Virus record (IMG/VR): IMGVR_UViG_3300021420_000026
Span: 6,221 to 70,220 of that record
Length of the DNA: 64,000 bases
Source of the DNA: a virus
Reading direction: 5' to 3' (one strand)
The notes beneath the pieces were generated by a model. The model did no database searches. It had not been told where the DNA came from and saw only the letters and a list, made by a program, of their open reading frames with translations. The translations under genes were made by a program, and so were the position numbers. Shown here one piece after another: positions 2,508-55,162 of this stretch (the first letter of the stretch is position 1; every line of letters begins with the position of its first letter).

Positions 2508-5500
2508 ATGGCCGACACAGACGCGCAGGATAGTGGGCAAGTCGCGCAGCCCGCCGCGGACAGCAGTCCGCCGGCACAGCCGACGCCACAGCCTTCAGAC
2601 ATCGACTATCTGAAGACCAACCCGCACGTGTGGCAGAAGTTCCAGAAGCAGTTCGGCCAGCTGCCAGACGGATTCGAGAAGCCCGTCCCCACGCAGACGG
2701 ACATCGACTACCTCAACACCAACACCAGCTCGTGGCCCAAGTTCGAGGAGGCCTTCGGCGCCCTCCCCAAGGGATGGGCCGCTGACAAGCCGGCGAAGCT
2801 CGGCGACTGGGAGGGCGACCTCCCCACCGTCACCGTCAAGCCCGGCGCTCCCGAGTCTAGCTGGGCAGACGTCGGCCGCTCGGCGCTGACCACCATAGGT
2901 GCCGGCGAGGAGCGCGTGGGCGCAGCCGTGCAGGAAGCCGGTGGCGTCAAGTCCTTCCTCAGCGGCGCCGTCACCGGCATCCTCAACAAGGCCACGGGCG
3001 CCAACGCCGAGGACACGTCGTCCCCGTACTCGCAGGCCGCGATCCAGTTCTGGCAGGCTCAGGTGTTGCCGGAGGCGCTGAAGTGGGCGCAGGAGAACAA
3101 GGCCTCGCTCACCGACGACCCCATGGTGAAGTCGGCGGCGGAGCGCGTGGGCTTGCGCCCCGACCAGTTCACCAAGGACTGGCCGACGTACGCGAAGATG
3201 ACGCCCGACCAGCTCGAGGCCGCGAAGTCCGAGGCTCGGTCGAAGATGCAGTCCTCTCAGGAGGACATGCTCAAGGGCTCGGCGCGGCGCAAGCTCGCCG
3301 GCCAGACAGAGGAGGCCTACGCCCCCAGCGTCCCCGAGGGCTCGCTCAAGAGCGCGGCATTCACCGCGGCCACCAACGCCCCAGACATAGCCGGCGCCGT
3401 CGCCGTGGGCATGCTCCCGTTCGGCCAGATCCCGGCGGCGGCGATGTTGGCCTCAGACTTCACCGCGCGCGCGTACTCCTCGGGCAAGGACATGGGCCTC
3501 AGCGACGCCGACGCCAAGGCCTACGGTGTGCTATCGGGCGCGACCACGTTCGTGCCCGGCGTCAGCGTAGGCTCGATGCTGGCCAAGGCCCCGGGCACCG
3601 GCCTCCTCCTCAAGACCGCCATCGGCAAGGCCCTCGGCGACTCCGCGGCGACCAAGCTCGCGGGCGGCACCCTCGACCAGGGGGTGGCGCTGGCGACGAT
3701 GAACCTCCTGCAGCAGGGCGTCGACAAGGGCTTCATCAGCCCCGACATGTCTCTGAAGGACGCGATGCAGACGATGCTGCACGAGATGGGCAGTAACGCC
3801 GGCATGGCGGCGGCGCTCACCGGATTCCATATGGCCGTGCACCGCGCGGCCAACGGCCCCCAGACTCCGAAACAGCTGGAGGACAGTCTACGCCCGCAGG
3901 GTGGCGCCGTACCTGAGGCCAGCGATGAGGCCATCCTGCAGGCGATCACTGACCAGCAGCCCGTCAAGCCCGAGGACATCAAGGCCCTCGCCGGCAAGGG
4001 CCTGATCACCGTCGGCAAGAACACGGGCAAGCCCATGATCCTGCCCGCTGGCAAGCGCTTCATGGACGAGGCCAAGACCGCGCGGGAATCGGCCAGCGAA
4101 GCGGCCAAGTCCAACGCCGAGGTCGACTCCAAGGCCACCGAGGAAGCCGACACCAGCGAGAAGGCGCCGCGCACTCCCGACGAGGCCGAGGATCAGGCTA
4201 CCGCTGACGCCCGGCGCGCGGGCGCGCACAACAACGCCATGCAGCCTGAGATGCGCGAGAAGCAGCGCCAGATAGACGTCGCCTTCGCCGACCGCGACGC
4301 CGAAGCCGAGCGCGCGAAGGCCAACGACTACATCAAGGCTCAGAACCAACGCGCCGACGAGATCATCGCCAACAGCGAGCATGCCGTCAGCGAGAACCCG
4401 GGGAAGATGAGCATCGGCGACGCCCTAGCCACCGCGCGTCAGGCCCCGGACGCCATCCGCCAGCAGATCCCGCGCAACCCCGATCTCACGCCGGAGGAGC
4501 GCAACATCGAGTCGAAGTTCATCGACCAGATCGGCAGCAACGTCAACAAGGCCATCGACGACTACAAGAAGATGCCTGCCACTGACGGCGGGCGCATGAT
4601 CAGCACCGACGAGGTGCGCATGTTGAGCCCCGACCACCAGAAGGATCCGAGCATGGCCGAGGCCATTCACGAGCCGTCGTCGTGGCTGGCCAACGTCATG
4701 TTCCGGCGCGCGCTCGCTGAGCCCCCGGGCCCGAATCAGGACAACCACGTCATCTTCACTTCTGGCGGTTCTGGCAGTGCCAAGTCGTCGTCCCTCTTCG
4801 GCAACGAGCACGAGAACAACTCCCTGACCAAGCGCGCGCAGATCATCTACGACACGGCCATGGAAAGCCCGGCAAACGCCATGAGCAAGGTCGAGGCCGC
4901 GCGGCAGGCCGGAAAGTTCGTGAGCGTGGCCTTCGTCTACCGCGACCCCGTCGAGGCATGGCGCAATGGTGTCCTGCCGCGGGCCATGGAGAACGGGCGT
5001 ATCGTCAACAACCGCGCACACGCGAGCACGCACACGGGCGCGCCCGAGGCCGTACGCCAGATCCTAGAGAAGTACAAGGACGACCCCAAGGTCTCCGTCA
5101 TCGCCATCGACAACAGCCGCGGCGACGGCAAGGCAGAGCTGATGGACCCCTCAGAGGCCATCAAGCTCCCATCGAAAGTCAGTATCGGTCGCCTCAATCG
5201 CGAGGCGCTGGAGGCGCTACATGCCAATGAAATTTCCGACCACGTCTACGAGAGGGCCACTGGTCTCAGCGCCCCGGCCCGCGGTGAAGATGGGGAGTCT
5301 GCAAAAGACACAAAGGGCGAGCTTTCTCGGGACCGAGATGCGAAACCGGCTGAATCAGAACATCCGCCAGCTGCGGTACGGGAGCCTGCCGAACGCGGAC
5401 CTGCCGTAGACGGCAAGCTCAACCGCATCGAGCAGCGCTCGCGCCGCCGGCTCGCGGCAGAGCGTGAACGCGCCAGCGCCCTGCGCGTGGGCGGCGGCAA

Positions 5501-8500
5501 GCCCGGCCCGTATACACAGGTCGCTGACTCGCTGCGCAAGAACGGCGCCGCTGGCCTGCGCGAGGTAATGGGCAAGCCCAACGTCGACCGCGCCGACAAC
5601 GTCCGCAGCACCAATTCCTCGCACTCCATTCTTGACACGCTGTTTAAGCACGCCGAGGGCAAGGATCCTCGCGTCGTCGACCTAATCAAGGCGCTGCGCG
5701 CGCACATGCCAGATGTGCCCGTAAACTTCGTCCGCGATGTCGTCGACAAGGGCAAGGCAATCGCCAACGCCATCGGCAGCTACCGAAACGGCGTCGTCCA
5801 GATCAAGATCCAGCTGGGCGCCGACAGCACCTCGCACATGCTGTTGACGGCGCTCCACGAGTTCGTGCACGCCGCTACCTACAGCGCCATCGAGGGCGAC
5901 CCCACGGGTCCGCTGGCGACTAAGATGCAGGCGCTGCTTAACGAGGCCCGCAGCCTCGCCGCGGCACAGTATGGTCAGGCCACGGTGGACGAGCACGTCG
6001 CCTACTTCAAGAACCCGGTTGGCGATCAGCCGCAGAACTACAATCGCAATCTCTACGTTCTCACCAACGTCCACGAGCTTATGGCCGAGGCGTTGTCCAA
6101 CCACGGCGCACAGAAATTCTTGAGCGAACTCGGGGCCGGCGCTCGCCTCAACACGCTCCCGGCCACGGAGCCTCGCGGTCTATTCGGCAAGATGATCGAC
6201 AACATCGCGAAGTTCCTCGGCCTCAAGCCGGACACGCGGTCGCTACTCTCAGACATCATCTCCACCACGGGCCGCGTCATGCAGCAGCAGCCGGCGATGG
6301 GTTTCGGCCGCGCCAACCTCCTGCGCATCGGCGAGGGCGAGGAGCGTGGAGAAGACGTCGCCCGCGATATGGGTGCCGGCAAGCTCTCGAAGCTCGTGCA
6401 GGCCGCGGCCGAACTCGGCGCCCTCAAGATCGTGCGCGGGGTTTCGCGCTTCGAGGACTGGGCGTCGGCAATGACGCAGGAGCTTGGCAAGGGCGTGAAG
6501 CCCGCGCTGCGCCAGCTCTACGACATGGCCAAGGACAAGACCGTCGACATCCGCTCGCTCGTCTACAAGACGAAGAAGACTGGTGAGTTCGTGGGCGGTC
6601 CAGCTGGCGTTGGCAAGGACGACTTGGCGCCACTCCGCGCCTCCCTGCGCAAGCTCGCGCGCGAGGGCGAGTTCGGAAAGGACTGGTACGACGAATCCAG
6701 CAAGGCCATCCTCGACGCCGTCAACGGCGACCGCGAGGAGGCGAAGAAGCTCGCCGGCCTGATGTCGATCTTCAGCAGCGGCGCCGCCGTGAGCGCGAAC
6801 ACGACGATGGCGCTGCGCGCGTGGTATCAGTGGAAAGCCGGCGAGAAGGTCAGCGTCGGCACCGGCAAGAACAACGACGTCGCCCAGCAGTGGCTGGACA
6901 GCGGCGTCGAACCCACGGGTATGAAGCGCTCGAACTTCTACGGCAACCTCCTGCAGTCCCTCGAGGGTGACACATCTAGCGTGTACTCCAACGGGGTCAC
7001 CGTCGACCGGTGGATGATGCGCGCGCTCGGCTACGCCAAAGACGTGCCTACAGAAGCGCAGTACGCCTTCGTCAGCGACCAGATCAGGCAGGTGGCGAAG
7101 TCGCTGAAGTGGACGCCGACGCAGGTGCAGGCCGCCGTGTGGGTGGCGATGAAGACGCGCTGGGAGCAGGTGCGCGCCGACGTCAACAAGGAAGCGCTGA
7201 AGAAGGGCTGGGTCGAGCAGGTCAAGTCGTCCAAGGGCCCGGTGCTCGAGGTTCTCGACCCCGAACGCTACTACGGGAAGATGTTCGACAAGGCCATGGC
7301 GGTCACGCTGGATCCCGAGCACATCAAGCGCAGCGCCGCCAACTTCCGCACTGAGCTGCTCAAGCACCGCGCGCAGGTGTCGTGGGAAGCCATGCCCGGC
7401 TCGAGCAGCCCGCGTATGCGCGGCATCGGCGATCTCCCCATCGAGCACCTCGAGGCTTTCCAGCGAGACGTCTCGCAGGCGCACGTCAACCCCAAGACCG
7501 GCAACGACCAGCTCATGGAGGCCCTCGGCATCCTCAGCATGCGCCACGTCGACGGCAACAGCGCGTGGTTCACCGACCACGGGCAGGTCATGCGCTTCCG
7601 CCATTGGAGCGTGAAGCCCGGCCTCGACACCCTCGACCCCAAGAAGATGGGCACCTCTGGCGTCGGAATGTCGGTAGAAGAGAAGAACCGCCGCAACAAA
7701 GTAACGGCGCTCTACCCCTACGACCTCGAGCCCGGGCAGCCCGAGAAGCTCGTCAGCGACACGGCCCCGCACCAGTACGTTGTCGAGATCCCGGCGGCGA
7801 AGCTCTACGACAGCGCGCGCGACCCCCGCGGATTCAAGCAGGCGGCTATGGAGCCCGTGGCCATGGACGCCGACGGCAACCCCACGGAGCTGGCGTACAA
7901 CCACGACACCTTCGAGCAGCAGGTCAAGGACGCGGGCTTCACTGGCTACTACGTCAGCGACCCCGGCACGGAGCTGCACGGGCAGGCGCGCGTGTTCGAG
8001 CCCGTGCGCGCGACTCCGGCAGCCGAGTACGCGAACACCGAGCCCTCGGGCGTGCTCCCGTACGCCAAGGCCGGCGCGCAGGAGATCATCTACGCCCCGC
8101 TCGCCAAGGGCGCCACCACCGAGCCCGGGGCCCCGCTCGACCCGCAGGCGAAGGCTCTGATGCAGTCCTACGCGGCCGCGCTCGGCAAGCTCAACCATCA
8201 GGACAGCGTGGGCTGGCACCGCCCGCGCTTCGGCCGCATCCCCGAGGCCTTCCAGAACGGCGTCGAGCTGCACATCCCCGGCGCCACGCGCGACGACTAC
8301 ATGCGCGTCTACAAGCAGATGACGGACGAGCTGAAGCGCGAGGGCCTCACCGACAGGCAGGCCGCGGAGTTCGCTCCCGTCCAGACCGACACCGGCGTGC
8401 GCTTCCTCAACTGGGGCGCGCTCGACAACAAAGCATTCCAGCGCGCGGCGCGGCGCGCATTCGCTGAGGACTCACTCTTCGGCAAGAAGTACGAGCACAC

Positions 8501-11500
8501 ACCGTTCGCAGCCGATGGAGGCTTGATCGACAATGACTGGAAACAACATCCCCGCGGAGAAGGCTACGACTCCGTCATCGCCGGCAACGGCCACACCGCC
8601 CGCATCAGGGACGCTCTCCGTGACATCGGGGGGCGCATCGAAGAAGTTTACCGCGACTATGCCAAGCGGTTTCGCCTCGACGACACCACCTCAGAATCTT
8701 CAGCACGTGCGCATCAACCGACCAAGGCTTCCGACCCAATATCCTTGGATCAACTGAAGACGGGGTCCGGGCTGCACGAGGACGTACTGGGCCGCTTTGG
8801 CACGTTCGGGGCCGGAGACACCCTTGAACAGCTGAAGCTGTACGACCTGAAGCGGCTTACAGACAACCCGAAGGATGCAGCCGAGCTTGCCAAGAAGCTC
8901 GGATTCGACGTGGAGTACTTCAGCTTCGAGAGCGATCCCAGTAAGGGCGTGGAGTTTAGGCTTCCCCGACTGGGAAAGAATGGCTACGAGAATGGAAAGC
9001 TGTGGCTCTATGATCCCCGCGTCGGAGCCGGCAGCTTCTACGACACGGAGTACACGCGCGCGTGGCGCATCACCCACGAACTCGGTCATGCGCTCACCGA
9101 GCCTCTGCTGCAGTCACGCTACGGGGACAGCCGTCGGTACGGCCGCCTCGGCCAGACGCTGGAAGTGACCCGCGGCGTTCTCGGTAAGCAGCGCCAAGTA
9201 ACCGAACGCCCGCTCACCCTCATGGAGGCTCAGCGCGCCGTCGAGTGGGAGGACGCCGCATTCCGTGCGCAGCGTGAAGTGCTCAAACAGCTGGGCGTTG
9301 CCATCAGTGATGAGGACTTCGCACGGGAATACAACGTGAACCTGTCCGACGCCGTCTACCGAGTTCTGAGCGGCAATTTCGGCGATCCAGCCCTTAGCGG
9401 CTTCATTCCCAAAAACAGCACACAGCCGCTCGAGGATGTCCTCGGGCTTCTTGCGCGCGCCGAGGGTGTCCTCGCACGCAGTCAGAACCGCGCGCCAACC
9501 GCTGGCATCGACGGACCAAGCTATCGCCCCATCTCCGACTCCGAAATTCGTCAGGCTCTCGAGAATCGCGCGAGCGGCGTGAAGGATGTCAAATTTGCCG
9601 CGCGTGCCGATGAGGCCGTGGACTACCGCGTGGTTGTCAAAGACGGTAAGGGCAACGAGCTGGATGGACCCCATCAGGATCTCCTCTTCAACAACGAACA
9701 GGACGCCTCCGATCATATCACGACCATGGCGGACATGCACGCCGGGCCCGCGGGCGCAGAGGTCGACCACAACCACTTCTGGTCGCAGGTGACGAAGGGC
9801 GGGAAGATCGACCGCACGTTCGCCATCGAGCCCGTGAGCCGCAACCCCTTCCGTGGCCAGAACCCACGCGGCGGCGAGGGCACGCCGGCTCAGCGCTTCA
9901 TCGGCGAGTTCGAGAAGCAGTACCCGGAGTCCGGCGAGATCGGCGAGCGCCTCGTCAACGGCAACACCGTGGTGTCGATGGTGCACGACCCCTTCAAGGC
10001 CAACACCGCCTACGTCCCATACGTGCGCGCGCTGACGCCGGGGCAAGGCGACGGCACCAAGGCCCTGCACGACGTCGTCGGCCTCGCCGACAAGCACGGC
10101 GTCGCCCTCGAGCTGAACGCAGTTCCCATCGGCACCTCGATGCAGTCGCGGCAGCTCATCGACTGGTACAAGAAGCTCGGTTTCCGCGAGGTTGGCGAGC
10201 CCGAGTCGAATGCGTGGGGAGCCACGAGCCAGCTCATGCGCCGCGAGCCAGCGGAGAAGCCCGAGCAGATCCCGCCGTTCGCCACAAATGCCGGCAAGGG
10301 CATATCTGCACAAGATGCCGCCGAGGTCATACGCTGCGCCAAGGAGATGTTCCCGCAGGCGGTCCACCACCTCGCCACCAGCATCGAGGACACGCCCCAC
10401 GAGGTGCAGGCCATCGCTGCCATGCGCGGTCTCACCGACCGCGTGCAGGCGGCGTACGTGCGCGAGTACGACGGCACCCACGTCTACCTCGTCCAGAACA
10501 ATATGCGCAGCGTCGACGAGGCCCTGCGCACCATGGTCGAGGAGAACGTCGGCCACGACGGCATCGCCAAGACCTTCGGCCCGGCCGTGGGCAACCTCAT
10601 GGACGGCTTCCTGCGGAATGAGGCTCTGCGCCCGGCCATCATCGAGATGGCCGCCCGGGAGGGCATCAACCTCCGGGCCGCAACGACCCCCGTGGCTCGC
10701 AAGGAGGCGCTCAGGGCCGCTGCCGAGGAATGGCTGGCCCACGGAGCCGCCCGGGAGATCACCGGCCAGAAGTCGCCTCAGGGGCTCCAGAAGGCCGTGC
10801 GGGACGTTGTGGCGGCCGTCAAGGTCTGGGCGGCCTCCAAGGGGCTGGGCGTCACCCTAGGCCACGACGAGGCCCTACACGCCCTCGCCAAGGCCCACAG
10901 GTACGTGACCAGCGGTGACTGGATGACCCGGATCAGCGAGCAGCGCGAGGAGGCCGAGGCCGGCAAGGTCAAGTTCGCCGCCGTGCCCCCGAGCGGGAAC
11001 GCAGACCTCGACGAGCTGCTGAACGACAAGATCGGTGCCGAGAAGGTGGGCTGGCGCACGCGGCTGTCCGGCGCCGTCCGTGACATCCGCTCGCGCATGG
11101 TCGTCTCCGGCCTCGACCGCATGTACCGCGTCAAGCAGTACGAAGACGACCTCAAGGTGCCGCCGGCAGAGTCCGGGTACATCAGCATGCGCCTGTCCAC
11201 GAACGTGGCGCCGTTACTGCGCAACCTCATCGAGTTCGGCCACCTGCAGTGGACCGAGACGCCGGGCGCCGACGTCGACAAGAGCATGACCCCGGACTTC
11301 AAGGAGGGCAAGCCCCTAAATCAGATCCTCGCCCCGCTCGGCAACGACCCGGCAATGCTCAGGCGCTTCGAGGGCTACCTCGTCGCCCTGCGTTCGCGCG
11401 ACCTCATGGGTCAGGGGCGCGAGAACCTGCTCGAGCAGCGCCACGTACAGGCCGGGCTCGACCTAGCCACCACGTACCCGCACTTCGTCACCATGCAGAA

Positions 11501-13838
11501 GGAGCTGGCGGCGATCAACCGCAACATGCTCGACTTCGCCGAGCGCGCGGGCGTGATCGATCCCGAGTCACGCAAAATGTGGGAGTCCGACTACTACGTG
11601 CCGTTCTATCGCGTCACCGACGACGCGGGCGCTGGGCCGTGGAGCGCGGGCTCGATGGCCAAGGTGCGCAACCCCATCATGCGTCTCATGGGATCCAAGG
11701 AGAAGCTGAATGACGTCACCGGTAACATCGTCCGCAACTGGTCGACGCTCATCAACGCCAGCATCAAGGCGCATGCTGTGCGCGTTGCTGTCGATAATCT
11801 TTCACAGGCCGGTGTGGCCGTACGAGTCCCCGCGCTTGAGCGGGGAGGCGACGCACTGGTCTCGACCAGCGAGATCAACAAGCTCCTACAGAAGCACGGC
11901 ATCACGCAGGGCCTGAGCCCGTCCGCCATCGGCGGCATCCAGAAGCTGATGAGCCTGAGCGCGCCGCAGGGCGACGACATAGTGCAGGTCTGGCGCGGTG
12001 GCAAGCGCGAGTACTACCGGCTGTCCGACCCCGCGCTCGCCACGGCGTTCGCCGCCCTCAAGGGCAGCGCGCTCAAGAACCTCGAAGACGACCCCATCGG
12101 CAAGGTCGTGGTCGGCGCCATGCGCATGCCCAAGATGGTGTTCACCAAGCTCACGACCGAGAACCCGCTGTTCGGCATCCGCACGCTCTACAAGGACAAC
12201 ATCAATGCGTGGACGGTCGGACGCGGGTACATGCCCGTGACGCCGGTCGTCTCCGCCATCACCGGCCTCGTGAAGACGATGCGCGGGAGCGAGAGCTTCA
12301 AGCGCATGGCCGCTGCCGGCGCCACGTTCAATGCCGGGCGCGCGGATCCCTACGACACCAACCTCACGGCGAAGCGCTACATCCGCTCGCCGAACATGGT
12401 CGGGCGCTCGTGGGACTTCTACCGCGACATGATGACCTCTGGCGAGAACGCCTCGCGCGTCACCATCTACGAGCGCACCGAGAAGGAGACGGGCAGCCAC
12501 AAGGTAGCGGCCTACGAGGCCCGCGACCTCATGGACTACGCGATGCGCGGCTCGAGCCCCATCGTCCAGTTCCTCGTCGAGACCGTGCCGTTCTGGGGCG
12601 CGCACGTGCAGGGCATCTACAAGACCGCGCGCAGCTTCGTGCCCGAGAACAGCCGGTCGTGGTCTCAGATCGCGGCGGGCGCGGCGAAGCGCATGGCGCC
12701 GATCCTCCTCAAAGGCGCGCTCCTGTCCGCGGCTTCGGCGGGGCTCTACATGAGCAACCGCAACAACCCCAACTATCAGGAGCTGACGGACCTCGACAAG
12801 GAACTGTACTACCACATCTACTTCGGCAGCTACCACGTGAAGCTACCCAAGGCCTTCGAGTCCGGCACCGTCTTCGGCACTGTGCCAGAGCTGATGGCGG
12901 ATGCGTTCATGAGCGACGACCCGCAGGTGGCCAAGGAGGACGCGCAGTCGCTGGTGCACGCCTTCGGCGCCGGCCTAAACCTCTACCCGCGCGTGACCGC
13001 GCTGACACCGCTGTGGGAGCTGTACACCAACCACAACACGTCGACCGGCGCGCCCATCCTCAGCGACTTCGACCAGAAGCTCATGCCCTCGGAACAGGTC
13101 GGGCCCAGCACCAGCTCCGCAGTTACCGCGCTCGCGCGCTCCATGCCGGGCATGGCGCCCGAGGCCCTGCAGAGCCCCAAGCGCCTGCAGCACCTGATTC
13201 AGGGCTACCTCGGCATCATGGGTTCGTACGGCATGGCGGCAGCCGACTACATGTACCGCAAGGCCACGGACCTGCCGGCGACTGCCGACCGCAACCTCGG
13301 CCAGATCCCGCTCGTGGGTCAGGTCGTGACGCGCACCGACCAGCCGCCGACGCAGACGCGCAGCCTCACCGAGCTGAGCAACATCATGATCGAGGCCAAC
13401 AAAGTACAGGACACGATCAAGGAGCTGCAGAAAAAGGAGGACGATGAGTCGCTCGAGCGCGCCGACACTCTGCAGCAGCAGAACGAGGAGTTGCTGAACG
13501 CTGGCGATCAGATCCGCCCGCTCTACGAGGACATCAAGAAGCTCAACGCCGCCAAGCGCCAGATCCAGCAGGATCCCAGCCTCAGCGGCAAAGAGAAGCA
13601 GGAGCAGCTGAACGACATCCAGAAGGACATCAACGACGAGGCGCGCGAGGCCTATCAGTACCGTCCGGGGTCGAAGCTCAGCAAAGAGCTGCTGCAGGAT
13701 ACGACTTCCGCGGTGACGCCAGCGGAGAAGGCGCGGATCCTGCGTAAAGCAGATCAGCCGGCGCTTGCGTCAATCGTCACGCAGTATGCGAAAGGGATGC
13801 CGGCCTCTGTTCAGTCGGCGATAGAGGAACTGTCATGA
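2508..13838 (+). CDS. giant multidomain (polyvalent-type) virion/ejection protein with P-loop NTPase/kinase-like, two zincin HExxH motifs, GNAT-like region and C-terminal coiled coil
   Basis: Single uninterrupted 3,776-aa frame with high third-position GC. Walker A GGSGSAKS at nt 4764-4787. HEFVH at 5856-5870 and HELGH at 9075-9089. GNAT-like segment RALTPGQGDGTKAL...WYKKLGFREVGE around 9970-10210. N-terminal tandem ~33-aa repeats (DIDYLxTN...W.KF..FG.LP.G). Lys/Glu/Gln-rich heptad region near 13380-13700. Confidence 0.8.
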   Translation: MADTDAQDSGQVAQPAADSSPPAQPTPQPSDIDYLKTNPHVWQKFQKQFGQLPDGFEKPVPTQTDIDYLNTNTSSWPKFEEAFGALPKGWAADKPAKLGDWEGDLPTVTVKPGAPESSWADVGRSALTTIGAGEERVGAAVQEAGGVKSFLSGAVTGILNKATGANAEDTSSPYSQAAIQFWQAQVLPEALKWAQENKASLTDDPMVKSAAERVGLRPDQFTKDWPTYAKMTPDQLEAAKSEARSKMQSSQEDMLKGSARRKLAGQTEEAYAPSVPEGSLKSAAFTAATNAPDIAGAVAVGMLPFGQIPAAAMLASDFTARAYSSGKDMGLSDADAKAYGVLSGATTFVPGVSVGSMLAKAPGTGLLLKTAIGKALGDSAATKLAGGTLDQGVALATMNLLQQGVDKGFISPDMSLKDAMQTMLHEMGSNAGMAAALTGFHMAVHRAANGPQTPKQLEDSLRPQGGAVPEASDEAILQAITDQQPVKPEDIKALAGKGLITVGKNTGKPMILPAGKRFMDEAKTARESASEAAKSNAEVDSKATEEADTSEKAPRTPDEAEDQATADARRAGAHNNAMQPEMREKQRQIDVAFADRDAEAERAKANDYIKAQNQRADEIIANSEHAVSENPGKMSIGDALATARQAPDAIRQQIPRNPDLTPEERNIESKFIDQIGSNVNKAIDDYKKMPATDGGRMISTDEVRMLSPDHQKDPSMAEAIHEPSSWLANVMFRRALAEPPGPNQDNHVIFTSGGSGSAKSSSLFGNEHENNSLTKRAQIIYDTAMESPANAMSKVEAARQAGKFVSVAFVYRDPVEAWRNGVLPRAMENGRIVNNRAHASTHTGAPEAVRQILEKYKDDPKVSVIAIDNSRGDGKAELMDPSEAIKLPSKVSIGRLNREALEALHANEISDHVYERATGLSAPARGEDGESAKDTKGELSRDRDAKPAESEHPPAAVREPAERGPAVDGKLNRIEQRSRRRLAAERERASALRVGGGKPGPYTQVADSLRKNGAAGLREVMGKPNVDRADNVRSTNSSHSILDTLFKHAEGKDPRVVDLIKALRAHMPDVPVNFVRDVVDKGKAIANAIGSYRNGVVQIKIQLGADSTSHMLLTALHEFVHAATYSAIEGDPTGPLATKMQALLNEARSLAAAQYGQATVDEHVAYFKNPVGDQPQNYNRNLYVLTNVHELMAEALSNHGAQKFLSELGAGARLNTLPATEPRGLFGKMIDNIAKFLGLKPDTRSLLSDIISTTGRVMQQQPAMGFGRANLLRIGEGEERGEDVARDMGAGKLSKLVQAAAELGALKIVRGVSRFEDWASAMTQELGKGVKPALRQLYDMAKDKTVDIRSLVYKTKKTGEFVGGPAGVGKDDLAPLRASLRKLAREGEFGKDWYDESSKAILDAVNGDREEAKKLAGLMSIFSSGAAVSANTTMALRAWYQWKAGEKVSVGTGKNNDVAQQWLDSGVEPTGMKRSNFYGNLLQSLEGDTSSVYSNGVTVDRWMMRALGYAKDVPTEAQYAFVSDQIRQVAKSLKWTPTQVQAAVWVAMKTRWEQVRADVNKEALKKGWVEQVKSSKGPVLEVLDPERYYGKMFDKAMAVTLDPEHIKRSAANFRTELLKHRAQVSWEAMPGSSSPRMRGIGDLPIEHLEAFQRDVSQAHVNPKTGNDQLMEALGILSMRHVDGNSAWFTDHGQVMRFRHWSVKPGLDTLDPKKMGTSGVGMSVEEKNRRNKVTALYPYDLEPGQPEKLVSDTAPHQYVVEIPAAKLYDSARDPRGFKQAAMEPVAMDADGNPTELAYNHDTFEQQVKDAGFTGYYVSDPGTELHGQARVFEPVRATPAAEYANTEPSGVLPYAKAGAQEIIYAPLAKGATTEPGAPLDPQAKALMQSYAAALGKLNHQDSVGWHRPRFGRIPEAFQNGVELHIPGATRDDYMRVYKQMTDELKREGLTDRQAAEFAPVQTDTGVRFLNWGALDNKAFQRAARRAFAEDSLFGKKYEHTPFAADGGLIDNDWKQHPRGEGYDSVIAGNGHTARIRDALRDIGGRIEEVYRDYAKRFRLDDTTSESSARAHQPTKASDPISLDQLKTGSGLHEDVLGRFGTFGAGDTLEQLKLYDLKRLTDNPKDAAELAKKLGFDVEYFSFESDPSKGVEFRLPRLGKNGYENGKLWLYDPRVGAGSFYDTEYTRAWRITHELGHALTEPLLQSRYGDSRRYGRLGQTLEVTRGVLGKQRQVTERPLTLMEAQRAVEWEDAAFRAQREVLKQLGVAISDEDFAREYNVNLSDAVYRVLSGNFGDPALSGFIPKNSTQPLEDVLGLLARAEGVLARSQNRAPTAGIDGPSYRPISDSEIRQALENRASGVKDVKFAARADEAVDYRVVVKDGKGNELDGPHQDLLFNNEQDASDHITTMADMHAGPAGAEVDHNHFWSQVTKGGKIDRTFAIEPVSRNPFRGQNPRGGEGTPAQRFIGEFEKQYPESGEIGERLVNGNTVVSMVHDPFKANTAYVPYVRALTPGQGDGTKALHDVVGLADKHGVALELNAVPIGTSMQSRQLIDWYKKLGFREVGEPESNAWGATSQLMRREPAEKPEQIPPFATNAGKGISAQDAAEVIRCAKEMFPQAVHHLATSIEDTPHEVQAIAAMRGLTDRVQAAYVREYDGTHVYLVQNNMRSVDEALRTMVEENVGHDGIAKTFGPAVGNLMDGFLRNEALRPAIIEMAAREGINLRAATTPVARKEALRAAAEEWLAHGAAREITGQKSPQGLQKAVRDVVAAVKVWAASKGLGVTLGHDEALHALAKAHRYVTSGDWMTRISEQREEAEAGKVKFAAVPPSGNADLDELLNDKIGAEKVGWRTRLSGAVRDIRSRMVVSGLDRMYRVKQYEDDLKVPPAESGYISMRLSTNVAPLLRNLIEFGHLQWTETPGADVDKSMTPDFKEGKPLNQILAPLGNDPAMLRRFEGYLVALRSRDLMGQGRENLLEQRHVQAGLDLATTYPHFVTMQKELAAINRNMLDFAERAGVIDPESRKMWESDYYVPFYRVTDDAGAGPWSAGSMAKVRNPIMRLMGSKEKLNDVTGNIVRNWSTLINASIKAHAVRVAVDNLSQAGVAVRVPALERGGDALVSTSEINKLLQKHGITQGLSPSAIGGIQKLMSLSAPQGDDIVQVWRGGKREYYRLSDPALATAFAALKGSALKNLEDDPIGKVVVGAMRMPKMVFTKLTTENPLFGIRTLYKDNINAWTVGRGYMPVTPVVSAITGLVKTMRGSESFKRMAAAGATFNAGRADPYDTNLTAKRYIRSPNMVGRSWDFYRDMMTSGENASRVTIYERTEKETGSHKVAAYEARDLMDYAMRGSSPIVQFLVETVPFWGAHVQGIYKTARSFVPENSRSWSQIAAGAAKRMAPILLKGALLSAASAGLYMSNRNNPNYQELTDLDKELYYHIYFGSYHVKLPKAFESGTVFGTVPELMADAFMSDDPQVAKEDAQSLVHAFGAGLNLYPRVTALTPLWELYTNHNTSTGAPILSDFDQKLMPSEQVGPSTSSAVTALARSMPGMAPEALQSPKRLQHLIQGYLGIMGSYGMAAADYMYRKATDLPATADRNLGQIPLVGQVVTRTDQPPTQTRSLTELSNIMIEANKVQDTIKELQKKEDDESLERADTLQQQNEELLNAGDQIRPLYEDIKKLNAAKRQIQQDPSLSGKEKQEQLNDIQKDINDEAREAYQYRPGSKLSKELLQDTTSAVTPAEKARILRKADQPALASIVTQYAKGMPASVQSAIEELS

Positions 13839-14173
13839 CCGGCGAAATAGGCAACGCGCTTGAGGTACTCGGCGCCATCAACAAGGAAGCTGCGCGCAGG
13901 ATCGAGCGGCTCGAGGACGACCTGTACGGCAAAGACGGGCTGCGCGTTCTCATCACCACCCTCGCCACGCGACTGGAGGACGTACCGGAAAAACTGGACG
14001 CGCTCACCACCGAGGTGTCTGCTCTGAAGGTAGCTGAGCAGAACCACGCTGACTCCGTCAAGACGCGAAAGACAATTTTCAAGGAGACGCTCAAGTGGGC
14101 CAGCAAGGCCAGCGCTCCCCTGCTCGCCGGTGTCATCGGCGCGCTTACGCATCGCCATTTCTCTGGACACTAA
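13835..14173 (+). CDS. small coiled-coil protein with hydrophobic C-terminus
   Basis: ATGA overlap with the giant ORF stop; 112 aa; heptad-like LEDDLYGK...LDALTTEVSALKVAEQ; hydrophobic APLLAGVIGAL tail. Confidence 0.45.
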   Translation: MTGEIGNALEVLGAINKEAARRIERLEDDLYGKDGLRVLITTLATRLEDVPEKLDALTTEVSALKVAEQNHADSVKTRKTIFKETLKWASKASAPLLAGVIGALTHRHFSGH

Positions 14174-14648
14174 CGTGGACGCCAACTCGCTACGCCAGCT
14201 CATTCGCTCCACCCTGAGCCCGCTCGGGCTCTACTCTGCCGATGCAGAGGAACTTCTTATGGCGACTTGCGCGCAGGAAAGCCTGCTCGGCAAGTATCGC
14301 ACGCAGGCGCCCCATGGCCCGGCGCGGGGGATCTTCCAAGACGAGGGCGGGGATTTCAACGACCTGTGGGACCACTACCTCGTGCAGCAGGCGCATCTCG
14401 CGCAGCAGGTCGCGGCACTGAACGGAGGGCAGAAGGGTACAGTCGATGACCTCGTCAATAATGACGCCTACGCCATCGCCATCTGTCGGCTCCACTACAT
14501 GCGCGTCCCGCACCCGCTTCCCTCCGGCTCAAATCTGGCCGCAATGTGGCATATGTACAAAGTCTGGTACAATAGCATAAATGGGGCGGCGACTCAAGAC
14601 CAATTTTACGAGCACTACAAGACTCTTGTCAAGGGCCCGGCTGTTTGA
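14130..14648 (+). CDS. lytic transglycosylase / endolysin (SLT-like)
   Basis: 172-aa ORF with the motif MATCAQESLLG...GIFQ typical of Glu-Ser catalytic SLT domains; heads the lysis cassette. Alternative GTG start at 14175 directly after the upstream stop. Confidence 0.6.
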   Translation: MSSARLRIAISLDTNVDANSLRQLIRSTLSPLGLYSADAEELLMATCAQESLLGKYRTQAPHGPARGIFQDEGGDFNDLWDHYLVQQAHLAQQVAALNGGQKGTVDDLVNNDAYAIAICRLHYMRVPHPLPSGSNLAAMWHMYKVWYNSINGAATQDQFYEHYKTLVKGPAV

Positions 14649-15027
14649 GTTTGAGCCCGGATACTTTGTGTCTCGGTCTGGGAGAGTGCTCGGGCCGCGC
14701 GGCGGCTGGCTCAGGCCAGCTATTACCGGCGCCGGGTATCCGTACGTGCACGTGCGTGGCCGGACTAGGTACCTGCACAGGTTGGTGGCAGAGGCATTCA
14801 TCCCAAATCCAGAAGGGAAGCCGACAGTCAACCATAAAAATCGGATCAAGACAGATCCTGCGGTAAGAAATTTGGAGTGGGCAACTAGGTCAGAGCAGAT
14901 GCGCCGCCCGGCAAGGGTGGCGACATGCCACCCAAGAAAGCGCCACTGTGCGCACGGTCTATGCTACACGTGCTACATGCGCGGGTATCAGAGAAAGAAG
15001 AGGCTGGATACACCATGGCCCTCGTAA
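14581..15027 (+). CDS. HNH homing endonuclease (HNH_3-like) with C-terminal Cys/His cluster
   Basis: PGYFVSRSGRVLG...GYPYVHVRGRTRYLHRLVAEAFIPNP...VNHKNRIKTDPAVRNLEWATRSEQ matches free-standing phage HNH endonucleases; CHPRKRHCAHGLCYTCY zinc ribbon; overlaps the endolysin 3-prime end (alternative TTG start at 14626). Confidence 0.7.
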   Translation: MGRRLKTNFTSTTRLLSRARLFEFEPGYFVSRSGRVLGPRGGWLRPAITGAGYPYVHVRGRTRYLHRLVAEAFIPNPEGKPTVNHKNRIKTDPAVRNLEWATRSEQMRRPARVATCHPRKRHCAHGLCYTCYMRGYQRKKRLDTPWPS

Positions 15028-42293: not shown

Positions 42294-42367
42294 GCGTGGC
42301 TGGTGCAATGGCAGCATGACAGTCTTCCAAACTGACGATGAGGGTTCGAGTCCCTCGCTGCGCTCCA
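42294..42367 (+). tRNA. tRNA-Gly (anticodon TCC)
   Basis: Manually folded: 7-bp acceptor stem with two G-U pairs; anticodon stem ACAGT/ACTGA with a terminal A-A mismatch; loop CTTCCAA (U33, anticodon UCC, A37); T-arm GAGGG-TTCGAGT-CCCTC; 3-prime CCA encoded. Confidence 0.75.
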
Positions 42368-42373
42368 TAGTTT

Positions 42374-42449
42374 AGGCGCCAATGTTCCAAGGCTGGCGAC
42401 GCCTCCTCCAAAGCGGTGTGGCAAGGTTCGATTCCTTGGGTGCCTGCCA
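42374..42449 (+). tRNA. tRNA-like gene, possibly tRNA-Trp (CCA); D-arm and anticodon stem imperfect
   Basis: 7-bp acceptor stem AGGCGCC/GGTGCCT; T-arm CAAGG-TTCGATT-CCTTG; CCA encoded. The best anticodon fold gives loop CTCCAAA with one stem mismatch. Confidence 0.4.
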
Positions 42450-43048
42450 GAATTGTGGTAGACTGCTGGTGTTGACTTAACCTAACCAAGAGGAAGCCAC
42501 TGTGAAAAACTTTCTTGCCCTTGTGATTCTGGCGCTGTGTAGTCTCTCAGCGCAGGCCCAGACGTCGATTGACCTGCCGACACCGCAGACCCTTGCGCTT
42601 GCGCAGCCTGTGCAGACTTTCTTGTGTTACGCCGATCAGGTGAACCTGAAGGTGTATAGCACCGCGGTAACCGGCTTCAGCGCCGACGGCAACTACGTCA
42701 CGGGTCAGGTTCCGGCCTACTTCACCTGCGGGCACAGCGGGCGCGGCGCTACCATCCACACGTACTACTCGTGCGCGCAGTTGACGTGGGACTTATCGGG
42801 GAATCTTGTGAGTGCAACGGACACCGTTCAGTTCGCCAGCAACGGCGCGCCGGCCTCATACAGCTGCCCCGACCTCGGTCTGGTGATGCCGTCGCGAACG
42901 CCGCCGAGCACGACGGTGGTCGGTAACTCGTTTACGAACGACGGCGGCTATGTCGCCGAGACGTTGCTGTCACAGCCGTGCGGATCCATCGCCTGCTACG
43001 GGCAGCCGATATACGGCCCGATTCTGTTGACGCCTTGATCAGGGCGGC

Positions 43049-43124
43049 GCCCCGGTAGCTCAGCGGCCAGAGCCGCCGGTTGTCTACCGGAAGGTCGTGG
43101 GTTCGAGTCCCACCCGGGGCGCCA
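43049..43124 (+). tRNA. tRNA-Asp (anticodon GTC)
   Basis: Perfect acceptor stem GCCCCGG/CCGGGGC; D-stem GCTC/GAGC; anticodon stem CCGG/CCGG with loop TTGTCTA; T-arm GTGGG-TTCGAGT-CCCAC; CCA encoded. Confidence 0.7.
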
Positions 43125-43158
43125 TATATCGAGCGCAATGCGCTTACGGATCGATTGC

Positions 43159-43234
43159 TGGGGAGTAGCTCAGTAGGTAGAGCGACTCGCTGTTAACGAG
43201 AAGGCCGCAGGTTCGATCCCTGCCTTCCCAGCCA
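43159..43234 (+). tRNA. tRNA-Asn (anticodon GTT)
   Basis: Acceptor stem TGGGGAG/CTTCCCA; D-stem GCTC/GAGC; anticodon loop CTGTTAA (U33, GUU, A37); T-arm GCAGG-TTCGATC-CCTGC; CCA encoded. Confidence 0.8.
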
Positions 43235-43241
43235 ATTCGAT

Positions 43242-43318
43242 GGGAGGGTAGCTCAGCTGGCAGAGCACGCGACCGATAATCGCGAGGCCGCAGGTTCGAT
43301 CCCTTCCCACCCCCACCA
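43242..43318 (+). tRNA. tRNA-Ile-like (anticodon GAT), possibly degenerate
   Basis: Perfect D-stem and anticodon stem (CGCGA/TCGCG, loop CCGATAA), but T-stem and acceptor stem have mismatches; looks like a copy of the tRNA-Asn 3-prime half with a 3-nt deletion. Confidence 0.45.
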
Positions 43319-46002: not shown

Positions 46003-46226
46003 TTACCATCGACGTAGACATGGTGAAGATCGAGGGCTCGTGGTGGGGCAATGAGGCCCCGTCGCTGGTGATGGATGAGCTGGGCCGCGGCCGCGTGCGC
46101 AAGCGCGTGCGCGTCAGGATGTCTGCGAGCATCATCTCTGAGATCGCGCGCAAGCTCTGGGCGCTACAGAAGCAGCACGCCGAAGTCTCAGCCAGCCTGC
46201 AGCGCAACCTCAGCAGCCCGTCGTGA
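45999..46226 (+). CDS. hypothetical small protein
   Basis: MITIDVDMVKIEGSWWG...; ATGA overlap with the nucleotidase stop. Confidence 0.35.
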   Translation: MITIDVDMVKIEGSWWGNEAPSLVMDELGRGRVRKRVRVRMSASIISEIARKLWALQKQHAEVSASLQRNLSSPS

Positions 46227-47449
46227 CCATCAAGCAGGTTTTGCGTGCCCCGGGTGGCGCGCCCGTTAAGGTGTGGACGGACGACGTTGAGGCTTCGGCA
46301 CTCGTGCAGCTGCAGAACCTGTCGACGCTGCCGTTCATCCACAAGCACGTCGCCGTGATGCCAGACTGCCACTGGGGCATGGGGTCGACGGTGGGCTCTG
46401 TCATCCCCACGATCAGGGCCATTGTGCCGGCCGCGGTGGGCGTGGACATTGGCTGCGGTATGATGGCGCACAAGCTCGCGTTGCATGCCGTGCACCTGCC
46501 CGACAATCTCGCCGACGTACGCGCGCGCTTCGAGGCCATCATCCCTCACGGCCGCACAGACAACGGCGGCGCCAACGACCGCGGGGCGTGGCACAACCCG
46601 CCCGAGGCCAATACCGCGGAGTGGAACCTGTTGCAGGACGACTCGAGGCTGAAGGCCGTCAAGGAGAGGCACCCCGGCGTCATCACGCGCCCAGAGCAGG
46701 GCCTGCGACAGCTAGGCACGCTCGGCACAGGCAACCACTTCGTCGAGCTGTGCCTCGACAAGGAGGATGCGGTTTGGATCATGCTGCACTCTGGCTCGCG
46801 CGGCATCGGCAACCGCATCGGCACCTACTTCATCGACCGCGCCAAGGAGGAGATGGAGCGCTGGCACATCCGGCTGCCGGACCCCAACCTCGCCTACCTG
46901 CCCGAGGGCTCGCCGGTGTTCGCCGACTACTGGCGCGCGTTGTCGTGGGCGCAGGACTACGCCCGCGTCAACCGCGAGCTGATGATGGGCGCGGCAAAGA
47001 CAGCTCTCGAGGTGGCGCTCGGCCGCGACATCGAGACCACTGAGTGGGCCGTCAACTGCCATCACAACTACGTCGCCGTGGAGAATCACTATGGTCGCAA
47101 TGTCTACGTCACGCGCAAAGGCGCTGTCCGCGCTCGTGAGGGCGACCTCGGAATTATCCCGGGTAGCATGGGGGCGCGATCCTTTATCGTCAGAGGACGA
47201 GGCAATCCTGAGAGCTTCCACAGCTGCTCTCACGGCGCTGGCCGACGCATGTCTCGGGGTGAGGCTAAGCGCGTCTTCACCACTGCGGATCTCGCTGCTC
47301 AGACAGCTGGAGTCGAGTGTCGAAAGGATGCGGACGTCGTCGACGAGATCCCGGGCGCCTACAAAGACATCCAGCAGGTGATGGACAACCAGAGCGACCT
47401 CGTCGAGATCGTGGCCGAGCTGCGTCAGGTGGTTTGTGTCAAGGGATGA
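46223..47449 (+). CDS. rtcB: RtcB RNA-splicing ligase (3-prime-phosphate/5-prime-OH RNA ligase)
   Basis: All hallmark motifs present: PDCHWGMGSTVG, VGVDIGCGM, GTGNHFVEL, HSGSRGIGN, NCHHNY, HSCSHGAGR; 408 aa. Confidence 0.85.
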   Translation: MTIKQVLRAPGGAPVKVWTDDVEASALVQLQNLSTLPFIHKHVAVMPDCHWGMGSTVGSVIPTIRAIVPAAVGVDIGCGMMAHKLALHAVHLPDNLADVRARFEAIIPHGRTDNGGANDRGAWHNPPEANTAEWNLLQDDSRLKAVKERHPGVITRPEQGLRQLGTLGTGNHFVELCLDKEDAVWIMLHSGSRGIGNRIGTYFIDRAKEEMERWHIRLPDPNLAYLPEGSPVFADYWRALSWAQDYARVNRELMMGAAKTALEVALGRDIETTEWAVNCHHNYVAVENHYGRNVYVTRKGAVRAREGDLGIIPGSMGARSFIVRGRGNPESFHSCSHGAGRRMSRGEAKRVFTTADLAAQTAGVECRKDADVVDEIPGAYKDIQQVMDNQSDLVEIVAELRQVVCVKG

Positions 47450-54929: not shown

Positions 54930-55162
54930 GCGCCGGGGTGCATGCCCACGGGTATGCACTGCGTCGCGCCGTGGCTGCTTATAGGCGGCCACAGGGGATG
55001 ATGTGGGCTCGTGCGTTGGGACGTACGCCTGCCTTGCAAGCAGGCTTTGCGAGTTCGATTCTCGACGGGTCCACCACTACTGGTGACGTCACACTAGTGA
55101 CGTTTTTTGTCAATAACTTACCTTGCCTAGGCAAGTATTCCTAGGCCACGAAAGGATCGGGC

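Follow-up and report, generated by a model that had tools for sequence, protein, structure and literature searches.

A giant phage gene probably encodes an LPD38-class polyvalent protein with an AcrVA5-like mini-GNAT domain in its cargo

The 64,000-nucleotide (nt) stretch of phage DNA analysed here in full (positions 6,221 to 70,220 of the IMG/VR virus record IMGVR_UViG_3300021420_000026; hereafter the window) carries a giant gene for a protein of 3,776 amino acids (aa). With a probability of roughly three in four, this gene codes for an LPD38-class polyvalent protein of the phage type, packed in the capsid and expelled with the DNA. The protein has a conserved module at either end (aa ~190-550 and ~2870-3715), both of them common to giant proteins of many unrelated podophages, and between them some 2,300 residues of exchangeable cargo with low-complexity linkers. 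The cargo comprises, in order, a zeta-toxin-like kinase, a domain with the motif HEFVH, a DUF7178 unit whose modules A and B are separated by an insert, a domain with the motif HELGH, a mini-GNAT acetyltransferase and a degenerate HExxxH domain.

Polyvalent proteins are regarded as the earliest weapons of a phage, and we know of almost none that has been tested. Stand-alone anti-CRISPR (Acr) proteins are made after entry, while the defences are already active, and thus face a timing problem that a pre-packaged anti-defence enzyme would avoid. The giant protein offers a concrete, testable case of a putative anti-CRISPR-type enzyme as virion cargo. Its classification as polyvalent is in itself unsurprising to a specialist. 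New are the assignment of the GNAT to the AcrVA5 type together with its fixed association with the HExxxH domain, the split DUF7178 unit, and the position of most cargo families outside current domain libraries. The last point holds for most cargo of the class as a whole, which is a very common one; the middle segment alone has more than 1,300 relatives, and the parts still unmodelled or uncharacterised include the two-part DUF7178 unit, the HELGH, HEFVH and insert domains and the combined GNAT and HExxxH unit.

Architecture and class membership

LPD38, shared ends and a variable middle together make up the architecture by which Iyer et al. (2017, J Bacteriol; PMC5512222) define phage-type polyvalent proteins, and the giant protein is placed in that class on this ground. 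LPD38 (PF18857), which according to Iyer et al. occurs in phage-type polyvalent proteins only, is matched in Pfam with E=8e-31 and 108 bits against a cut-off of 27. It lies within a C-terminal scaffold that also matches phrog_18222 and phrog_9854 and shows 22-27% identity to giant proteins in 40 phage records across ~700-880 aa. Direct comparison of the C-terminal ~850 aa gives 24-27% identity to Escherichia phage PTXU04 gp25 (2,197 aa), Aeromonas phage phiARM81mr p69 (3,190 aa), the giant protein of Achromobacter phage CF418P1 (2,684 aa) and Vibrio phage VvAW1 gp01 (3,640 aa); beyond these four annotated phages, ~35 more phage records match the scaffold. The N-terminal module is common to PTXU04 and VvAW1 only, among the four annotated giants compared, and is matched by tblastn in Vibrio phage 1.211.A and Pseudomonas phage Itty13. 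A hydrophobicity scan of this module finds one moderately hydrophobic segment (aa 294-316).

Between the ends, the annotated giants differ. The middle of the phiARM81mr protein holds a methyltransferase and ddrB-ParB, that of VvAW1 holds an Eco57I-type methylase/ResIII and an SNF2 helicase, and nothing recognisable is found in that of PTXU04. Twelve giant metagenomic relatives were also scanned, and they carry LPD38 (12), DUF7178 (11), Zeta_toxin (4), SLT (3), ART-PolyVal (2) and InPase (1). The giant protein itself has several unrelated effector domains, the class being recognised by 2-15 of them, namely the zeta kinase, the GNAT, the DUF7178 unit, two HExxH domains, the HExxxH domain and the insert, and each cargo domain type recurs independently in other proteins.

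Relatives of the cargo were collected by an exhaustive HMMER search with aa 1401-2600, which at a limit of E <= 0.001 returned 1,322 proteins, among them 324 with E below 1e-30. Counts given below as out of 150 refer to the best 150 of these 1,322 matches, nearly all of which measure 2,000-4,600 residues. Word-indexed searches with slices of the protein returned almost nothing (1, 0 and 2 matches), megablast gave no DNA-level match to the giant gene in annotated phages, and an exact-protein look-up found no record of the giant protein.

The initial annotation of the window, made from the letters alone, had likewise read the giant ORF (open reading frame) as a polyvalent protein. That reading holds, as do its zeta-like and GNAT-like segments; the zincin identity that it gave to two HExxH domains finds no match by homology or fold. 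Of the N-terminal tandem repeats that it listed, two copies exist at the protein level, in a segment that is also matched in P0003, a metagenomic orthologue of 4,093 aa, and in the proteins P0010 and P0069; they are undetectable as a tandem repeat at the DNA level. Its long C-terminal coiled coil corresponds to a highly charged stretch of ~100 aa (aa ~3625-3725; 50% E/K/R/D/Q), with the coil itself judged from composition. It had also suggested that the combination of domains may be undescribed. Comparison with published polyvalent catalogues shows that every domain type it named is already known from such proteins, since metallopeptidase (MPTase), GNAT and zeta-like kinase domains are all listed by Iyer et al., and the same architecture is present in at least one other phage. 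What remains new of that suggestion is the AcrVA5-type GNAT with its fixed HExxxH partner and the split DUF7178 unit.

The closest known systems are the LPD38 giants Burkholderia phage JC1 gp69, Bcep22 gp75 and Shiga toxin (Stx) phage phi24B gp47. Shared with them are the C-terminal LPD38 module on a giant polypeptide, the terminal position of the gene in the virion block beside the lysis genes, and unrelated enzymatic domains set between linkers. Unlike JC1 gp69 and phi24B gp47, the giant protein has no methylase, helicase, lytic transglycosylase, LPD1/3/5 or MuF-C domain; its cargo consists instead of the zeta kinase, two unclassified HExxH domains, DUF7178, the AcrVA5-like GNAT and the degenerate HExxxH domain.

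Virion association and proposed delivery

JC1 gp69 (4,515 aa; LPD38 at residues 4195-4401) was detected with 51 unique peptides in virions purified on caesium chloride (CsCl), and its gene lies at the end of the virion module near the lysis genes (PMC9144972). The phi24B protein gp47 (2,811 aa; LPD5, LPD1, LPD38 and a metallopeptidase) is present in the virion proteome and absent from the cryo-electron microscopy (cryo-EM) map, and its authors propose an encapsidated ejection protein whose metallopeptidase degrades peptidoglycan. A precedent for the passage of such a chain is coliphage N4, in which a beads-on-a-string protein of ~3,500 residues is expelled through a tail channel of ~35 Å together with two partner ejection proteins (PMC13434306). 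Like N4 gp50 with gp51 and gp52, the giant protein belongs to a size range of ~3,500-3,800 residues, has loosely connected domains and is directly preceded by two conserved genes. N4 gp50 is encapsidated and expelled through the tail with its two smaller partners, as the giant protein may be too. The giant protein has neither an RNA polymerase module nor sequence similarity to gp50, so that the likeness is one of working principle only.

By analogy with these proteins, the end modules would direct the giant protein into the capsid and through the tail, by way of passage or channel formation, and the linked cargo domains would thread the tail channel like a string of beads. The chain may then be cut into separate effectors by one HExxH domain or by both, as Iyer et al. 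propose for polyvalent MPTases (PMC5512222). The kinase and the acetyltransferase, each dependent on a cofactor of the cytoplasm, would thereafter modify host targets ahead of any phage gene expression.

The AcrVA5-like mini-GNAT and its HExxxH partner

The mini-GNAT and the HExxxH domain form a unit of ~320 residues (aa ~2473-2815) that recurs in ~10 other giant proteins and on 24 viral contigs of IMG/VR. Built from 11 sequences, the profile for this unit gives a single PDB match, 6iuf_A (E=2.2e-5), across GxGxG...AL and the LIxWYxxNGF helix. The structure 6IUF is AcrVA5, from a Moraxella bovoculi prophage. This acetyltransferase of 92 residues modifies K635 of Cas12a and thereby inactivates it; Cas2 is acetylated too. 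An AlphaFold model of aa 2470-2815 (mean predicted local distance difference test, pLDDT, 80) returns 6iuf_B and 6iuf_A as top Foldseek matches (probability 1.00, E=4e-3), with template modelling (TM) scores of 0.57 and 0.56, respectively, normalised to AcrVA5. The acetyl-CoA motif GQGDGTKAL (aa 2512-2520) corresponds in the alignments to RQGIGSQLI of 6iuf and to the motif A found in 1y9w and Naa50, and is followed by WYKKLGF at aa 2553-2559 (nt 10041-10184 in all). Searched as a single sequence, the segment has GNATs as its four strongest matches, all on the same motifs, and AcrVA5 is among the eight matches listed. The GNAT-like segment noticed initially at about 9970-10210 is thereby sharpened to the AcrVA5 type. 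The Pfam GNAT models stay below threshold (Acetyltransf_10, E=0.23, 11.9 bits versus 23.6), and two of the 11 relatives reach Acetyltransf_1, at best with 0.007.

Like AcrVA5, the domain is a mini-GNAT shortened to ~90-100 residues that has the GxGxG...AL motif and an L(I)xWYxxxGF helix. Unlike AcrVA5, which is free-standing and early-expressed, it lies inside a late protein of 3,776 aa and always stands before a zincin-like domain. Identity between the two is ~20%; an AcrVA5-like fold does not imply a Cas12a target. A literature search found no paper that pairs AcrVA5 with polyvalent proteins, and an AcrVA5-like domain within an injected protein appears to be unreported. As a tentative suggestion, on balance doubtful, the mini-GNAT might be an injected lysine acetyltransferase that disables a host defence protein, such as a Cas effector or a DNA-sensing nuclease, before transcription, with the neighbouring zincin-like domain serving for its docking or release. 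If true, the mini-GNAT would be the first enzyme of anti-CRISPR type to be delivered as cargo of the virion, and the recurring unit would represent a family of injected anti-defence modules in giant phage proteins.

In relatives, the HExxxH domain carries LLHExxGHxG followed, ~55 residues on, by an invariant AAEE. The giant protein has VEENVGHDG at aa 2677-2685 and AAEE at aa 2738-2741. Of 22 IMG/VR loci, 21 retain the first His, as do 11 of 14 representatives; E or Q stands in its place only in the giant protein's small clade, and the copy here probably lacks canonical metal binding. The modelled order is helix, strands, motif helix and Glu helix (pLDDT mostly 85-94). MATCAP, a HExxxH metallopeptidase with its third ligand in an EEG motif, is the best non-GNAT Foldseek match (probability 0.82, E=0.027, TM 0.19). 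The HExxGH and downstream EE of the family parallel the HExxxH and EEG of MATCAP, but the first His is Glu in the giant protein and the fold match is weak (E 0.03). A HExxxH clade of polyvalent MPTases is mentioned by Iyer et al. (PMC5512222). This third zincin-like domain was overlooked in the initial annotation, as were the DUF7178 unit, its insert and the two syntenic genes upstream.

Other cargo domains

The zeta-toxin-like kinase is recognised by Pfam above its cut-off, and a profile of ten homologous segments matches PDB 6eph, the Neisseria zeta_1 toxin, with E=4.9e-20 over ~195 residues including the P-loop. The Walker A motif is GGSGSAKS (aa 753-760, nt 4764-4787), at the coordinates first reported, and the zeta-toxin-like context proposed for it there is supported. 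In the family alignment, the Walker A Lys and Asp 782 are invariant, and the Arg columns are one nearly invariant and one invariant. The domain thus resembles the zeta toxins (PezT, zeta and ng_zeta1, 6EPH), which are UDP-sugar kinases belonging to toxin-antitoxin systems, in its aligned P-loop core and its conserved Lys, Asp and Arg; it differs from them in lying within a giant protein and in having Ala for the usual Gly before the Walker A Lys. The canonical Walker A, G....GK[ST], occurs nowhere in the giant protein. From its sequence the domain is expected to phosphorylate a cell-wall precursor of the uridine diphosphate (UDP)-sugar type or a related nucleotide. Family scans of the neighbours found no epsilon-type antitoxin gene nearby, although no search was aimed at epsilon.

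HExxH motifs number two in the giant protein, against 0.09 expected from composition, and a motif scan of the translation returns both exactly where they were first reported. In the HEFVH domain (motif at aa 1117-1121, nt 5856-5870) the downstream Glu is E1190, within TNVHELMAE (aa 1186-1194). Two relatives were detected, P0003 and the last internal virion protein of the T7-like Variovorax phage VAC_51, the only annotated homologue, and the HExxH and downstream Glu are kept in all three sequences. The HELGH domain (motif at aa 2190-2194, nt 9075-9089) is far more widespread. It is carried by 49 of the 150 relatives, and the protein P0001 is 46% identical across it. In an alignment of 17 sequences H2190, E2191 and H2194 are invariant, as is W2247-E2248, and E2198 is near-invariant, which leaves E2198 and E2248 as candidates for the third-ligand Glu, in the way that E1190 is for HEFVH. 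Its model (pLDDT ~92) runs helix, strands, HExxH helix and Glu helix with the EWED motif, an order consistent with the description of the zincin core by Iyer et al. PDB profile searches with the HELGH domain, and with modules A and B, insert and HELGH together, gave no match; fold searches of the HELGH region used one large multi-domain model, at reduced sensitivity. The best guess from these motifs is that both domains are metal-dependent hydrolases. As to the two zincins proposed at the outset, the motifs are real and conserved with a distal Glu, and a zincin family or fold match was not obtained.

The DUF7178 unit is the commonest cargo among the relatives found. Module A (model pLDDT ~90) is present in about 115-116 of the 150, and module B (pLDDT ~86) accompanies it in all 106 relatives compared that carry A. 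No PDB sequence or fold match was found for either module. The two are adjacent in 104 of these 106, and in the giant protein they are split by the insert. This ~150-aa insert recurs elsewhere in ~10 relatives, usually just upstream of the GNAT unit, with the signature RFRHW...GTGxxGAE...LYDxxxDPxG...AGYxGYY...GQARxF and invariant H, Y, Y, D and E. An ART identity was considered for it, ART domains being placed beside polyvalent GNATs by Iyer et al., and was rejected on finding no match to ART-PolyVal, to any other Pfam family or in the PDB. As a separate observation, one short metagenomic protein has a module-A-like region fused to a phage lysozyme domain.

Table 1. Positions of the giant gene, its parts and the two genes upstream in the window
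Feature	Residues (aa)	Position (nt)	Strand	Evidence or remark
Two upstream genes, G/A/Q/N-rich	360 and 453 long	59-2504 (59-1141, 1143-2504)	+	36% and 25% identity to orthologue neighbours
Whole giant gene, LPD38-class phage polyvalent protein (probable)	3,776 long	2508-13838	+	ORF list, translation
Two ~30-aa N-terminal repeats	31-59, 65-95	2598-2792	+	Local self-alignment score 88 (BLOSUM62)
Conserved N-terminal scaffold, Gly/Ala-rich	~187-550	3066-4157	+	BLASTP to N-terminal parts of PTXU04 gp25 and VvAW1 gp01
Zeta-toxin-like P-loop kinase domain	~650-900	4455-5207	+	Pfam Zeta_toxin (PF06414), 37.2-41.6 bits versus 22.3
HEFVH domain, gluzincin-like motif pair	~1050-1290	5655-6377	+	Motif and downstream Glu conserved in three sequences
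Module A of DUF7178 unit	~1340-1690	6525-7577	+	Pfam DUF7178 6e-12; phrog_3842
Inserted uncharacterised domain	~1695-1850	7590-8057	+	Splits modules A and B
Module B of DUF7178 unit	~1860-2060	8085-8687	+	Co-occurrence with module A
HELGH domain	~2075-2355	8730-9572	+	17-sequence alignment, 56% mean column identity
AcrVA5-like mini-GNAT acetyltransferase domain	~2485-2585	9960-10262	+	Profile versus PDB; Foldseek
HExxxH-type zincin-like domain, degenerate	~2600-2815	10305-10952	+	Motif in relatives, fold match
Conserved C-terminal scaffold, with LPD38 and charged helical stretch	~2830-3776	10995-13835	+	Pfam, PHROGs, homologues
LPD38 (PF18857)	3421-3603	12768-13316	+	Pfam

Weighing of the reading and its alternatives

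Several observations weigh against an injected, enzymatically armed polyvalent protein. Virion association comes from the homologues JC1 gp69 and phi24B gp47, from which we infer the packaging of the giant protein itself, and its gene neighbours have no detectable similarity to the neighbours in annotated phages with LPD38 giants. The role of the end modules is likewise inferred, and the DUF7178 unit has no assigned activity. Among the enzymes, the Walker A motif of the kinase has Ala before the Lys, where nine of ten relatives have Gly, so that activity is likely but not assured. The giant protein's own GNAT segment matches GNATs weakly (E 0.1-1.4), and the AcrVA5 link draws on the 11-sequence profile and on a model with pLDDT 65-85 in that part. 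The HEFVH and HELGH domains have no detectable homology or fold match to known zincins (Pfam, PDB sequences, Foldseek) and are unrelated to the HExxxH domain at the profile level (HELGH versus HExxxH by hhalign, probability 0.3%). The HExxxH copy here, without its first His, is probably degenerate.

Other identities for the gene fare much worse. Its extreme length, and the long spurious ORFs that high-GC DNA yields in other frames and strands, could suggest several genes joined by an assembly error or frameshift. The frame 2508-13838 opens with ATG and is free of internal stops, exactly the uninterrupted 11.3 kb first described, and its G+C content at third codon positions (GC3) is 0.73-0.94 in all 300-codon windows, so that the coding signal is continuous with no sign of a frameshift or fusion. 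Together with P0003, which is independent and collinear from aa 379 to the C-terminus at aa 3775 (a span of 3,400 residues), this marks a single genuine gene and excludes the fusion artefact by which the initial annotation could have failed. A partial protein, P0002, is 94% identical, and the more than 1,300 relatives, with giant lengths in nearly all of the 150, argue the same way; we give an artefact very little credence. Just as improbable is a DarB-like antirestriction protein, a name borne by several homologues. VvAW1 gp01 and JC1 gp69 are so called and have the C-terminal module in common with the giant protein, but the name comes from methylase and helicase cargo (Eco57I/ResIII/SNF2 in VvAW1, COG4646 in JC1). 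Pfam finds no methyltransferase or helicase module in the giant protein, which shares the scaffold alone, and the DarB identity was rejected; segments left unassigned are aa 450-650, 900-1050 and 2360-2480. An N4-like virion RNA polymerase, the best-known podophage protein of ~3,500 aa, would fit the size, the position at the end of the structural genes and the probable packaging, yet it too has scarcely any probability. The full-length protein matches no PDB chain at E<=1, although the PDB includes structures of the N4 polymerase, and scans of Pfam, PHROGs and NCBIfam find no RNA polymerase family. No schitovirus is named among the tblastn matches, the nearest relatives of the portal are not N4-like, and other domains account for nearly all the length. 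In the absence of a T7-like RNA polymerase module this identity was rejected as well.

A more serious alternative, though still an unlikely one, is that of a mainly structural ejection or conduit protein whose enzymes serve envelope penetration, acting on peptidoglycan synthesis and peptide cross-links, and not anti-defence. Zeta and PezT toxins, however, act on UDP-sugars in the cytoplasm, so that the expected substrates of the kinase are not periplasmic, and the nearest known relative of the GNAT modifies cytoplasmic Cas proteins with a cytoplasmic cofactor, acetyl-CoA. An envelope role accords with the proposal made for phi24B gp47 and with the grouping of zeta-like kinases with cell-wall-directed domains by Iyer et al. 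SLT transglycosylase domains occur in three of the 12 scanned relatives, and the HEFVH homologue lies within an "internal virion protein with endolysin domain"; the giant protein itself has no lysozyme or SLT domain in Pfam. Envelope penetration and host modification by an injected polyvalent protein are not exclusive.

Product names attached to homologues are misleading in this class. They include "putative portal", "thymidylate kinase", "N-6 adenine-specific DNA methylase" and "DarB-like antirestriction" (OQ817832.1, MW202577.1, MG592596.1, NC_020488.1), and are unreliable because only the scaffold is common, each name having been taken from one cargo domain or wrongly assigned.

Genomic setting

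The window is a tailed-phage genome with large terminase, portal, major head protein, primase/helicase, RtcB and a tail fibre gene (60881-62464). For the portal, identity reaches no more than 36%, with portals from 50-65 kb phages of Roseobacter, Pelagibacter, Caulobacter and cyanobacteria, and the phage thus has no close cultured relative. The giant gene closes the structural block before the lysis genes, as it does in CF418P1, in JC1 and on the 28-kb metagenomic contig L007 that carries P0003. On L007 a tail-fibre-like gene and small genes come first, followed by two mid-size genes and then the giant gene; beyond it lie two small genes, a GH19 endolysin and another two small genes. The two genes upstream of the giant gene are conserved there in the same order, directly 5' of the orthologue, so that the window and L007 share the late, virion-type series of tail fibre gene, two syntenic genes, giant gene and lysis-type genes. 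Family scans gave no match for the two upstream proteins, which may be candidate partner ejection proteins comparable to N4 gp51 and gp52. On the 3' side follow a 172-aa protein with an SLT motif, small proteins that have membrane-like stretches of moderate hydrophobicity, and an Rz-like protein; the initial placement of the gene between low-complexity proteins and a lysis cassette describes this setting fairly.

The probable endolysin differs between the orthologous loci, being the 172-aa SLT-like protein at 14130-14648 (+) in the window and GH19 at 20967-21578 on L007. The 172-aa protein carries the motif CAQESLLG...GIFQ and matches phrog_3108, whose listed function is unknown. An HNH endonuclease ORF (phrog_59, 4e-31) at 14581-15027 (+) overlaps the ends of two putative lysis-region ORFs, and the gene calls in 14.1-15.7 kb are ambiguous.

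Elsewhere the window carries an RNA-repair-like set, comprising an RtcB ligase (phrog_1075, 1e-143; 46223-47449, +), a second RNA ligase (PF09414; 17709-18380, -) and an Rv2179c-like 3'-5' exoribonuclease (PF16473; 16802-17656, -). Six tRNA genes (Gly, Trp, Asp, Asn, Ile and Ala) lie at 42294-43314 and 55005-55076, and together with the RNA-repair set they look like a counter to tRNA-cleaving host defences.

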